Source of the DNA: Promethearchaeota archaeon
Lineage (GTDB): Archaea > Asgardarchaeota > Lokiarchaeia > Sigyniarchaeales > SOKP01
Assembly (NCBI GenBank): GCA_008080735.1
Contig: SHMW01000004.1
Span: forward strand, 1-64,000
Reading direction: 5' to 3'
Length of the DNA: 64,000 nucleotides
The position numbers were made by a program, and so were the translations under genes. The notes under the pieces were generated by a model. That model did no database searches. It had not been told where the DNA came from and worked only from the letters and a program-made list of their open reading frames with translations. Below are positions 40,619 through 58,476 of this stretch, one piece after another. Each line of letters opens with the position of its first letter. Within the stretch, counting starts at the first letter, position 1.

Positions 40619-42133
40619 TTATGGTAGAGCTAATCTACCTGGATGCATTATCATATTAGGATCAACAAGCTTTTTGAAAGCCCTCAAATATTTCCAGTAC
40701 ATTGCTGCATCATAGTACGCTTGAATATGGATATATGGATCTGGTCTGTAATTTAACCAGCCTTGCTTTAATCCGTATTCTGTGGTTTCTCTGTTCAGAT
40801 CTTGGACTTTTTCGAACTCCTTCGGGTCTGTGCTGTCGAAACAGATGATTGGCATACAAATCGCTTGGCGACATCGCTCGATAGACGCAATCCACATTTC
40901 CAGGTGCATCTTGAGGTAAGATGCGATAACTGGTGGAAAGTCGTATTTCTCCATCGCGGCATTATACATCTCGGCGAAGTGAGCACATTCATTCCATGGT
41001 GTGTACCACGTAATAAATAGGAAGCCCGCTTCCCAGAAGCTATACGGAATCGCTATTTTATTCGGTTTCTTCATTCTGCTCTCGATCTGCTTCGGATGTA
41101 ATTCCCACGGTCGCATCGCATCACCGTCTTTCGCTCGATTGGCAGCATAATCCTTACAATGGTTATTAATAGTATCAACAACATGCTCTAACTCTTTCTC
41201 TGATTGTGCCCAGCATTCCCAGTTCATCCACCACTCCGGAATACCAATCTTCTCAAAGAAAGCATATTCGTGAGGAATCTTATCTTTCGGCCATCGAGTC
41301 ATGACTAAGGGATAATTTCCCCCTTGTACCATAACGGTATTGTGAGCAACGCCAAATTCTTTCATACCTAATTCGAGCGTGACATCCTGCATATCATATG
41401 GGTTTGACATACCCCATGCGACCACAGTTTTTGCGTCTGGATGAGGATAAATCTTGACAGCAGCTTTCGTGACAACTCCTAATGCTCCTTGGGAGCCCAT
41501 CAAAAAGGACCACATGTCAGGCCCCAAACCATATTTATAGAACGGTTTTGCGCCTGGAAGAGCCCAAGAGCCAGTTTTTACGACATCACCATTTGGGAAC
41601 ACAATCTCGGCGCACATGAAATTGTCGCCTTGAGGTCCGACCGATGATGTATATAAGGAAAACCCTCTGTCAATCGCATCGCCCATAACGGTCGCCGCGG
41701 GAGGAGCTCCATCCGCGATTGGAGGTGCCCAATCAGGGTGGTTCTTATGCATATATGCCCAGAGCTGCCCGTTCGTGACGCCTGGTTCAATGATCGCATA
41801 ACGATTATCTTCATCGATTTCCAGAATTCTGTCCATCCGTCCTAAATCGAGCATAACGCCCGCTGGTTTAATAGTCGGGCATGCAAACCCTCCGGAGAGT
41901 CCCGCTGAAATGGGAGAGACGGCGATCTTCTCATCAGAACAGTATAAGAGAATCTTTCTGATTTCTTCGACGTATTTGGGTCGCAGTACGACATCAGGAA
42001 TCTGACTTTCCAAGCCCATGACGGATTTTGCGAGGTAGGACGCGGTGATGGCTTCATCCATCGTGGCGTATTCCTTCCCGACGATACCCTCGAAGGCTTG
42101 GAGGTCTTTTTCGGTTGGTGCTTTATAACTCAT
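40619..42133 (-). CDS. FAD-binding oxidoreductase (GlcD/VAO family); candidate in-frame 30-nt intron at 40898-40927
   Basis: PDVVLRP, LDLGRMDRILEID, IEPGV, GSQGALGVVTK, KKLVDPNMIMHPG. Confidence 0.9.
   Translation of the reverse strand: MSYKAPTEKDLQAFEGIVGKEYATMDEAITASYLAKSVMGLESQIPDVVLRPKYVEEIRKILLYCSDEKIAVSPISAGLSGGFACPTIKPAGVMLDLGRMDRILEIDEDNRYAIIEPGVTNGQLWAYMHKNHPDWAPPIADGAPPAATVMGDAIDRGFSLYTSSVGPQGDNFMCAEIVFPNGDVVKTGSWALPGAKPFYKYGLGPDMWSFLMGSQGALGVVTKAAVKIYPHPDAKTVVAWGMSNPYDMQDVTLELGMKEFGVAHNTVMVQGGNYPLVMTRWPKDKIPHEYAFFEKIGIPEWWMNWECWAQSEKELEHVVDTINNHCKDYAANRAKDGDAMRPWELHPKQIESRMKKPNKIAIPYSFWEAGFLFITWYTPWNECAHFAEMYNAAMEKYDFPPVIASYLKMHLEMWIASIERCRQAICMPIICFDSTDPKEFEKVQDLNRETTEYGLKQGWLNYRPDPYIHIQAYYDAAMYWKYLRAFKKLVDPNMIMHPGRLALP
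40898..40927 (-). other. Candidate BHL-type mRNA intron (30 nt, in frame)
   Basis: ATCGCATCTTACCTCAAGATGCACCTGGAA; central helix CCAG/CTGG; cut sites TT|A and AA|A; 7-bp stem with ACCTC loop. Confidence 0.6.
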
Positions 42134-57000: not shown

Positions 57001-57207
57001 ATCTATTGTTGGTTCTACGAACAAGTTGTCGGGATTTTGATGAGTGCCAGAAAAATACGCCATATTGTTTTTATAGCTTTTCACTTGAGCTTCACTAAAA
57101 TATTCAATAAACGGAATATTGATTAATCCTAATACAATTAATTCTCCGATGAACAACCCGATAATCAATAATAAATACTTGATTCGGCGTTTTTTCTTTC
57201 TGTCTAT
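54040..57207 (-). CDS. Signal anchor + prenyltransferase/squalene-oxidase repeat domain + TM + intact ABC ATPase
   Basis: Repeats QNPDGSY, NPLDGGF, NLDGGFG, NPEDGGFG, QNPDGGF x2; GESGAGKST, LSGGQ, LDEPTSGLD, ISH; start either TTG 57168 or ATA 57207. Confidence 0.85.
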   Translation of the reverse strand: MDRKKKRRIKYLLLIIGLFIGELIVLGLINIPFIEYFSEAQVKSYKNNMAYFSGTHQNPDNLFVEPTIDSNYRAIDSINFSSPLFNTSHFVHPVNNPNLSESKREFFLDYLFEKQNPDGSYSDIGGLGDMYSTYKVIETIDLLNGSYLDAPEHQDRINRTIDYINNSLDEGGMGFKYNEEVPEADIISTYYAIKLVKRLNANSILETNNASITAYIKLLGNYSIGFSGSYRYSNRSYTTVTAETTYYGVRAYLEMGYTYNSSEELAIFGYYNLLYNPLDGGFRSSTQAAISDISATYYSLWNIYHFNNSFFINQTQTKEFVTNCTNLDGGFGPHWAINVSDFTSGWGGMNSIFLLEKNGSLVIDDSFKINYYNWLYEYQAFNGLIGETNLQINYLGVLALYNWNSEKYITYIDINSIINFVNSCYNPEDGGFGSQPLANSSIFSTYCAVFLYQLFKPYTLQNLPNVTATVNYLANLQNPDGGFKLGEDFELLLSYFGPAYELLLKDLIDTNISTTESTYWAIKSLNDLNALNLIDQNTLTHWISSGQNPDGGFSIIHGFHSDVISTYYGLEIHKILNLEPLSKIAAIEFLKGAQKEEGSFNIIPFLSQLTELPSSFISTYLGSIALYRYRSQPEDIKTLTEWYRRCISLNTGGVGDIPSFGGDLRNTPYGLVIIDEIRYDQAFDPLPWSNLLIWLMISEALLIVAFIVISILSYLNERVMKILKSMIGLEGDLNINYLKRFSAVYCENLDIYIGKKLIVDGVSLELEHGEILGVLGESGAGKSTFVKALLGMRKYTGICEIYGMDVKKNKRKIRPIYGYVPQDLGKIYTDFTTLQNLIYFGKQYGLTEKEIVSKSKRLLRSLEIEDKMNELVKNLSGGQKRRVSIAMGLIHNPIFCILDEPTSGLDPVVRENLWLALTQINEKYNTTLIVISHYPEESRFCNKVVVFGRGRGMIDFGTPRQLLSQLPGDGRTIELFFYDIQEDAVERLEKIEGIDKALENKVGTDFALLTNLNLNEVREELEKTFGENSILGLKQSDSVMEQYFRFRAMEVPEIE

Positions 57208-57238
57208 TATTATTCACCTGGTTTATGTATTGCTTTTT

Positions 57239-58269
57239 CTACTTTTCTAATAATTCTAATCTATCTTTCTCTTCCTCTCTTTTGATTCGTAATTGGAAAT
57301 AACGTCTAAAATTTGCAACATCTCTGCTCATTGCCATTATCTTGACTTCTCTTTCCAGTAAATAGTCGATAAGAGGGAGTAAATTTTCCTCGAAATCTTC
57401 TAAAAATACCTCGACTACATCATTACCTACTCGAGATACTTCTTCACAATGCTCAAAATCCGCTATTATATCAATGATCTCTCCTGTGAGGTTTTCAATC
57501 GATAATCTCGCTAGTAATCCATTGCTTGGTAGAGAGGAAATTAAATTATGGGGGGTATCGAAATCAAGTAATTTTCCTTTCCTTAAGATTGCGGTCTTAT
57601 CACAGACAAGTGCCGCCTCTAAATCATGTGTGATGATAAACATTGTAGTCCCTAGTTTTCGGTTTAATTTCTTAAGATAATTAAGGATATCATAACGCTT
57701 ATTGGCGTCTACACCTTTTATCCAAATTAATTGAGATAATTAATTTGTGTGGTAGGTTCATCTAAAAATAAGACGCCTGGATTATGAATAAGCCCTATAG
57801 CCATTGAGACTCTCTTTTTTTCTCCTCCACTAAGACTTTTTAGTGGGTTTTTCCATGTATCTTCGGGAATATCAAGTATAGAAAATAACTCTCTAGCACG
57901 TTTTCTTGCGTCCTTTTTTGTCATCCCGTAATTTGATCCGAATATTTCTACATTAACTAGCGGGGAAAGTTCATAATAGAGATTTAGTAATTCTAACTGT
58001 GGAACATAACCAATATTACTTAATATCTCAGAGTGATTTCTTTTCTTAGCAGGATTCAGACCAGTGACCATTATATCACCTGACCAATTGTTTTTCTTGA
58101 TTTGACAAGTTAGAACTCTAATTATAGTTGTCTTTCCAGCTCCAGATATTCCAAATAATCCAATTAATTCCTTTTTTTTAACATTGAAAGATACATTATG
58201 AATAATTTGAGAATCACCAAAAAACACATTAAGATTCTCAACATCAACAGATACTTGATTTAAAATCAA
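57239..58269 (-). CDS. ABC ATP-binding protein interrupted by a 32-nt candidate intron; join(57749..58269, 57239..57716), 332 aa if spliced
   Basis: GISGAGKTT, LSGGE, LFLDEPTT in the 5' part; GVDANKRYDILNYLKKLNRKLGTTMFIITHDLE resumes in another frame 32 nt later. Confidence 0.85.
57717..57748 (-). other. Candidate BHB-type mRNA intron (32 nt)
   Basis: ACAAATTAATTATCTCAATTAATTTGGATAAA; 10-bp perfect stem with ATCTC loop; bulges AC|A and AA|A flank TACC/GATA; removal restores frame and D-loop. Confidence 0.8.
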
Positions 58270-58476
58270 ACACCACCACTAAGTAGGAAGTTTTTCTCAT
58301 TTTCATTACAATAAATTATACCTAAATTAGTAAACATTACTTTAATTAATGATTTAATGATATTTACAATTTTTAAAATTATGTTAATAAGAAAATTGTT
58401 TAAATTATTTTATTTTTTGTGGGATTTTGACTACTCTTAAAACTCTAAATAACCCGAGAGAATTTTTAAATGAAAT

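Follow-up and report, generated by a model that had tools for sequence, protein, structure and literature searches.

A candidate tRNA-type intron concealed in frame within a Lokiarchaeial FAD oxidoreductase gene

A 30-nt insert in the FAD-binding oxidoreductase gene of a Promethearchaeota archaeon very probably belongs to the bulge-helix-bulge (BHB) class of introns. The gene lies on the minus strand of the window, i.e. the whole 64,000-nt stretch of DNA that was analysed. On the evidence of comparative sequence, the insert is likely to be at least partly spliced today, and the reading favoured on balance is that of a facultative intron whose incomplete splicing yields two forms of the protein, perhaps en route to exonization. 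More tentative is the fuller proposal of a partly spliced EndA-type mRNA intron by which one gene could yield proteins of 494 and 504 aa, with selection acting on RNA motif and codons together. The gene, its neighbour and the insert are as follows.

40619..42133, minus strand: host gene, FAD-binding oxidoreductase of 504 aa (494 aa without the insert), from the ORF and PF01565
39183..40592, minus strand: downstream partner, CCG / 4Fe-4S protein (GlcF/HdrD-like) of 469 aa
40898..40927, minus strand: 30-nt insert, encoding IASYLKMHLE if read (intron nt 1 = 40927, nt 30 = 40898)

The host gene product is a member of the VAO/PCMH flavoprotein superfamily (PF01565, FAD_binding_4, at E = 1e-20), and the solved structures nearest to its profile are p-cresol methylhydroxylase and vanillyl-alcohol oxidase. 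The CCG / 4Fe-4S protein is the probable electron-accepting subunit; on JGI contig L061 its gene likewise lies 3' of the oxidoreductase gene. Orthologs of the oxidoreductase were detected in 35 of 41 related genomes, and the nearest database homologs are 494-495 aa long. All 24 of 24 aligned homologs (55-94% identity) have a gap exactly at IASYLKMHLE, between the nearly invariant V402 and M413, and excision of the insert leaves ...FPPV-MWIASIER, as in these homologs. The initial annotation, which covered the insert plus its pairing flanks (40889-40940), had read the minus-strand sequence exactly and had held that the canonical cut rule removes just these ten codons; the homolog gap bears this out. 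Its further statement that annotation would miss such an intron also holds, the insert being read as ten extra residues. With the insert, which is in-frame and stop-free, the 504-aa ORF remains unbroken, so frame restoration needs no removal, and in this the insert departs from an obligatory intron of the cbf5 type.

By pattern search the insert is missing from 158 of 161 genomes of the class; the search returned only the present genome (G000) and G003, of the same genus, plus one chance match in G116 that is not the ortholog. Together with G003, Logan contig L059 and JGI contigs L060 and L061 carry it (two other independent assemblies and two JGI contigs). A pattern scan of JGI metagenomes for more insert alleles gave 0 matches, a search of short protein fragments gave no additional allele carrying the insert, and the protein collection contained no insert-less product identical in its exon parts. 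Within the genome no further copies were found at up to 7 mismatches. An assembly artefact is contradicted by the presence of the insert in three species-level assemblies as well as in the JGI contigs. Short inserts are bypassed in some mitochondria, and a translational bypass (hop) element was considered beside the artefact; the take-off codon GUU does not match the pre-landing codon GAA, and other members of the insert class covary in the BHB helix, so that bypass or artefact is scarcely conceivable.

The RNA elements around the insert are listed below.

40930..40933, minus strand: H_a, the CCAG strand that exon 1 contributes to the central 4-bp helix; next to it, UU (40929-40928) opens the 5' splice loop
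40900..40903, minus strand: H_b, the CUGG strand that the intron contributes to the central helix; the AAA bulge (40899-40897) comes next
between 40898 and 40897, minus strand: predicted 3' cut, inside the AAA bulge
40906..40924, minus strand: inner hairpin h', a 7-bp stem (40924-40918 with 40912-40906) with loop ACCUC (40917-40913)
40891..40896, minus strand: outer helix h, exon-2 bases UG UGG A (Met-Trp codons), pairing with exon-1 bases 40934-40937

RNAfold returned the fold that had been described from the sequence by eye: a hairpin whose 7-bp stem carries a 5-nt loop, a 5x2 internal loop, the CCAG/CUGG 4-bp helix, an A-rich 3' bulge and an exon-exon helix. The folding energy of the insert region is -17.6 kcal/mol (z = -2.4 against shuffles). 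By the canonical BHB rule each cut falls two bases beyond a strand of the central helix, two exon bases after the exon-1 strand and two intron bases after the intron strand, and the cuts so predicted, UU/A and AA/A (the slash marking the cut), excise precisely the 30 nt that homologs lack. Owing to a repeated AT the border can slide by 0 to +2 nt, and only shift 0 obeys the rule. In that register the central helix H is 4/4 Watson-Crick, the 3' bulge is AAA, h has 2 bp and the inner 7-bp stem is offset from the splice sites by two unpaired bases on each side; both flanking helices thus have the 2 bp or more expected of them (h = 2, h' = 7). In the MFE fold h extends to 4 bp with a 5-nt bulge. 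The strict hBHBh' form has two 3-nt bulges, whereas here only the 3' bulge is canonical and the 5' site is a 5x2 internal loop. The motif is a relaxed BHL / hBH-L form. Given this 5' loop and a 2-bp outer helix in the canonical register, the substrate may be poor or dead.

For a fixed position and L = 30, a fraction of 4.2e-5 of genome positions combine H 4/4 with h of at least 2 bp and an inner stem of at least 7 bp; allowing for three registers raises this to 1.3e-4. This exact-register geometry, with a chance of about 1e-4, tells against a plain in-frame insertion or local DNA duplication with a fortuitous RNA fold. Such an event would account for a length that is a multiple of three, the lack of a stop, the codon-like evolution described below and the occurrence of IAS twice. 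The initial annotation had itself allowed for a small duplication on the last ground; this did not hold up, as similarity between insert and flanks is that of shuffled sequence (its best local score is 7, and shuffled sequences average 7.0; p = 0.63), and tandem duplication was rejected. The same gene moreover carries a narrow class of 29-34 nt inserts, including members whose length is not a multiple of three. A plain insertion is accordingly most improbable, and unrelated causes together remain very improbable.

The insert has company throughout the genome. Eight more inserts of 29-37 nt were checked in protein genes of this genome, namely those for RNase HII, DnaG, AMP phosphorylase, Csp, prpE-like and acetoacetate-CoA ligases and an ABC ATPase, and one more gene. 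All follow the same rule, and excision restores conserved motifs. The inserts break the frame in RNase HII, dnaG, ABC ATPase and others. In RNase HII, three species of the genus have CGGG/CCCG, UGGG/CCCA and AGGG/CCUU, respectively, as the central helix, i.e. exon and intron covary, and compensatory changes of inner-stem pairs are seen in RNase HII, the contig C11 gene and AMP phosphorylase. The dnaG intron is present in five genomes. Orthologs free of an intron are free of it to the base. One of these introns lies 17 kb away from the insert and serves as a positive control in the same window.

57717..57748, minus strand: 32-nt frame-breaking BHB intron in the ABC ATPase, between Walker B (LDEPT) and the D-loop

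The control intron is identical in G006 and precisely missing from the orthologs in G003, G004 and G005; Pfam searches with the two ABC ATPase pieces were uninformative, as the model stops at Walker B. In geometry, some frame-breaking members are as relaxed as the insert in the oxidoreductase gene (site E in G003 and RNase HII in G000). Class members are most often 30 nt long (1 + 9 + 5 + 9 + 4 + 2), a length shared by about half of 17 inserts (G000 contigs C1, C11, C25, C30, C43, C49 and C77, and loci L004, L020 and L059). Because of this modal length many class inserts must be in-frame, and stop-free hidden introns should be common in these genomes. With 34% GC in this genome, a genome-wide scan finds hBHBh' motifs as often as a mirror-geometry control does, and with a frame-fusion filter there were 97 real against 112 control matches; a motif scan alone therefore cannot provide a census of the class. 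In every insert checked, the four exon bases just before the 5' cut find their complement in the intron strand of the central helix, which suggests that the arrival site is picked, or retained, through intron-target base pairing.

The enzymes for such splicing appear to be at hand. Of two EndA paralogs, the alpha-type one on contig C72 is nearest to the catalytic alpha subunits of A. pernix and Sulfolobus and has the Tyr, His and Lys residues along with K-P-R of the Crenarchaea-specific loop (CSL); the other, the beta-type one on contig C37, is without the catalytic Tyr and His. Two RtcB genes are also present. By these features the genome encodes a predicted broad-specificity (alpha-beta)2 EndA plus RtcB. 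The CSL and its Lys44 confer BHL-motif cleavage on EndA (PMC3241643), and Asgard archaea have been reported to possess (alpha-beta)2 EndA with a CSL insert (PMC5829648). This agrees with the premise of the initial annotation that some archaeal endonucleases accept relaxed motifs. A run of ARAGORN on the whole genome gave only 12 tRNA genes without introns, with erratic intron calls that are too unreliable for comparing intron styles; most tRNA genes must be interrupted, some at unusual positions.

The oxidoreductase gene itself is a hot spot for introns: taking all genomes together, it has at least seven sites of insertion (L059:188-1990, L004, L020). In relatives, inserts of 29-34 nt occupy about six other sites, and several break the frame. 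Besides the same 30-nt insert at the same site, G003 has a second in-frame 30-nt insert at RPD/PYIH and a 29-nt insert at HPG/RLALP that ruins the invariant C-terminus unless removed. In G010, inserts of 34 and 32 nt throw MWIASIER...ICMPI out of frame, and a 31-nt insert lies at HPG/RLALP. The gene on L059 has five inserts, two frame-breaking and three in-frame and stop-free; one 30-nt insert on L059 contains stops. In G014 an in-frame 33-nt insert follows CFDS. The corresponding 11-residue, Cys-containing insertion is shared by L014 and protein P0015 and satisfies the cut rule, with 33 nt, H 3/4, h of 9 bp and a 6-bp stem adjacent, which makes it a possible further hidden in-frame intron. 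The length class in this gene fits an RNA-level element and not a protein-level insertion, because it is narrow (29-34 nt) and independent of divisibility by three. Judging from the reading frames, the oxidoreductase transcripts of G003 and L059 cannot do without splicing at other sites.

The history of the gene may be mixed within the genus. Although G006 (contig C59) is syntenic and 89% identical in the ABC region, it is only 83% identical (aa) in the oxidoreductase gene, while G003, G001 and G004 are 94-95% identical (aa) in the oxidoreductase gene as against about 70% (nt) in the ABC region. This conflict between gene trees (window 40619-42133 against 57200-58300) suggests that the oxidoreductase gene recombined within the genus.

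Three distinct alleles of the insert are available, those of G000 (identical on two JGI contigs), G003 and L059, their DNA having been reached through the 90% protein cluster of the window's product. The differences, at intron nt 6, 9, 12 and 24, each fall on a third codon position; every one of these four changes is synonymous, and the ten residues are invariant. For four random transitions the probability that all are synonymous is 0.0077, a coding-constraint argument that draws on four substitutions among three alleles only. At the RNA level, A to G at nt 6 retains its pair as G.U, U to C at nt 9 opens a pair and shortens the inner stem from 7 to 5 bp, and nt 12 (in the loop) and nt 24 are unpaired. 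Across the alleles, neither helix H nor B2 varies; in the inner stem a single A-U gives way to G.U and a single pair opens. The BHB core (CCAG, CUGG and the AAA bulge) is the same in all three, including four synonymous sites inside it, and a 5-bp inner stem is still in the range of frame-breaking class members. The initial annotation had named conserved residues with synonymous, stem-breaking changes as the outcome that would speak against an intron. Such a pattern is present in part: the ten residues are kept, whereas the core is untouched and the shortened stem is within the class range. Its claim of a hidden BHL intron stands likewise in architecture, exact borders and genomic company, and is weakened by the conservation of ten residues through four synonymous changes, one of which shortens the stem.

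Because substitutions are synonymous only, the retained form would be translated, and the ten codons of 40898-40927 seem to have been seen by selection. The in-frame RPD/PYIH insert of the same gene differs by six events among three alleles with 0/6 synonymous (Fisher p = 0.005 against this insert); as it shows no coding constraint, translation of retained introns leaves no general mark. In the frame-breaking HPG/RLALP insert, hairpin variation is confined to the loop. Closely related alleles without the insert (P0122, P0124, in both of which the H_a Pro codon is CCT) show that the ten residues are dispensable, and strong purifying selection on dispensable residues would be odd.

G000 and G003, whose oxidoreductase genes differ at 48% of third positions gene-wide and are not sisters in the gene tree, are almost the same over a 68-nt tract around the insert (P = 7e-5). 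An RNA-level constraint on this tract was rejected, as the insert-less relatives P0122 and P0124 have the same flanks; the tract reflects recent common ancestry or recombination. Low divergence was also rejected as evidence of translation, since the frame-breaking ABC intron is identical in G000 and G006.

The pattern of these alleles bears on two further explanations. An ordinary, efficiently removed BHB intron would be in-frame and stop-free by chance, its unspliced product negligible and the synonymous-only pattern coincidental. Geometry and class membership agree with this, as does the modal length of 30 nt, and about half of the in-frame members are expected to be stop-free by chance. It is nonetheless distinctly unlikely in view of the probability of 0.008 for four all-synonymous changes and of a pattern significantly unlike that of the RPD/PYIH insert. 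The alternative of an exonized intron, which came as a BHB intron but is no longer (or never was) cut owing to its imperfect 5' site, would have the ten codons always translated. It gains from the synonymous-only differences, the one change that shortens the inner stem, the relaxed 5' site with its 2-bp helix h, and the tolerance of the modelled protein fold for a loop at this place. It must also explain why the BHB core and its four synonymous sites are constant in three alleles when insert-less sister alleles differ at the H_a Pro codon, and it meets equally relaxed class members in genes that cannot work unspliced, besides the need, in G003 and L059, for the same transcript to be spliced elsewhere. 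Exonization is thus regarded as unlikely. At least partial splicing is likely because equally relaxed members sit in genes unworkable if unspliced, and because the same transcript must be spliced elsewhere while the BHB core is intact in all alleles. Facultative splicing, the preferred reading, accommodates both the RNA motif and the codon pattern, and the two-isoform idea of the initial annotation, or exonization, fits the data better than a silent hidden intron.

Structure prediction with and without the ten residues, a comparison that had been proposed, leaves the fold unchanged. In the AF2 model of the longer protein (pTM 0.72) the residues form a low-confidence loop between the helix 380-396 and the strand MWIASI; the model of a natural ortholog that has no insert (pTM 0.75) bridges the two with a confident turn of six residues. 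In these models retention appears plausible, not obviously useful. The tryptic peptide expected from the spliced form is YDFPPVMWIASIER; insert-specific peptides would be one ending ...IASYLK and one starting MHLEMW....

Starting from what is established here (the insert, its borders, geometry and class, the enzymes and the codon-like substitutions), we infer cleavage, ligation and a ratio of two forms along the following lines. The insert would be one of the ~30-nt tRNA-type (bulge-helix-bulge/loop) introns that populate protein genes of this Lokiarchaeial genus. In the pre-mRNA, CCAG of exon 1 would pair with CUGG of the intron, and the (alpha-beta)2 endonuclease is predicted to cut two bases past each helix strand, at UU/A and AA/A. 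RtcB would then join the exons, giving the 494-aa consensus protein. Message left unspliced, having no stop in the 30 nt, could be translated to the 504-aa protein with a ten-residue loop before the strand MWIASI, and by the substitution pattern this retained form may be both made and under selection.

A Lokiarchaeial genus thus has EndA-type introns in many protein genes, up to five in one, with 30 nt the commonest length. A sizeable share of them must be in-frame and stop-free and hence invisible to gene callers. Hidden introns of this type inflate annotated proteins and are not necessarily silent, as the ten codons bearing a translation mark suggest; if this is true, there would be a route for such introns to become short protein insertions. 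The gene could also serve as a clean test system, since it occurs in nature in alleles that carry the intron and alleles that lack it, and a frame-breaking intron for use as a control lies 17 kb away. Were both forms made, the locus would represent a simple, protein-only alternative splicing without a spliceosome in the archaeal lineage nearest eukaryotes.

Splicing of HAC1/XBP1 mRNA is cytoplasmic and removes a short intron defined by stem-loops; a protein endonuclease cuts, a tRNA ligase (RtcB in animals) seals, and spliced and unspliced mRNAs give different proteins. The proposed process would work alike, but HAC1/XBP1 differs in its endonuclease, IRE1, in being a regulated frame switch and in being eukaryotic; an analogy only is intended, with no claim of nuclease homology. 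A further comparison is with the non-canonical (BHL, HBh', hBH) tRNA introns, which, as here, combine a splice site in a canonical 3-nt bulge with a second one in a loop beside a 4-bp helix (PMC3241643, PMC5829648). Their (alpha-beta)2 EndA has its counterpart in the alpha/beta pair and CSL K-P-R of this genome; unlike in those introns, the substrate here would be an mRNA, and Pro/Val codons make up the exon strand of the helix. The tRNA introns of Asgard archaea described in a 2026 preprint share with the present introns the same lineages, the same splicing motif and frequent recent gains; that preprint concerns tRNA genes only and leaves mRNA introns unmentioned. In the literature searched, endonuclease-type introns in archaeal coding sequences are documented for cbf5 only, whose pre-mRNA has a BHB intron in Crenarchaeota (Watanabe 2002; Yoshinari 2006; Yokobori 2009, PMC2738675). 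Both the cbf5 intron and the present insert are BHB introns in protein-coding sequence, presumed to be cut by a hetero-oligomeric splicing endonuclease, and both vary in presence between related species. Removal of the cbf5 intron is needed for the protein, whereas here the frame is open and the insert evolves like codons; in further contrast to cbf5, the host is an Asgard archaeon and the intron is one of many in its genome, with up to five in the same gene.
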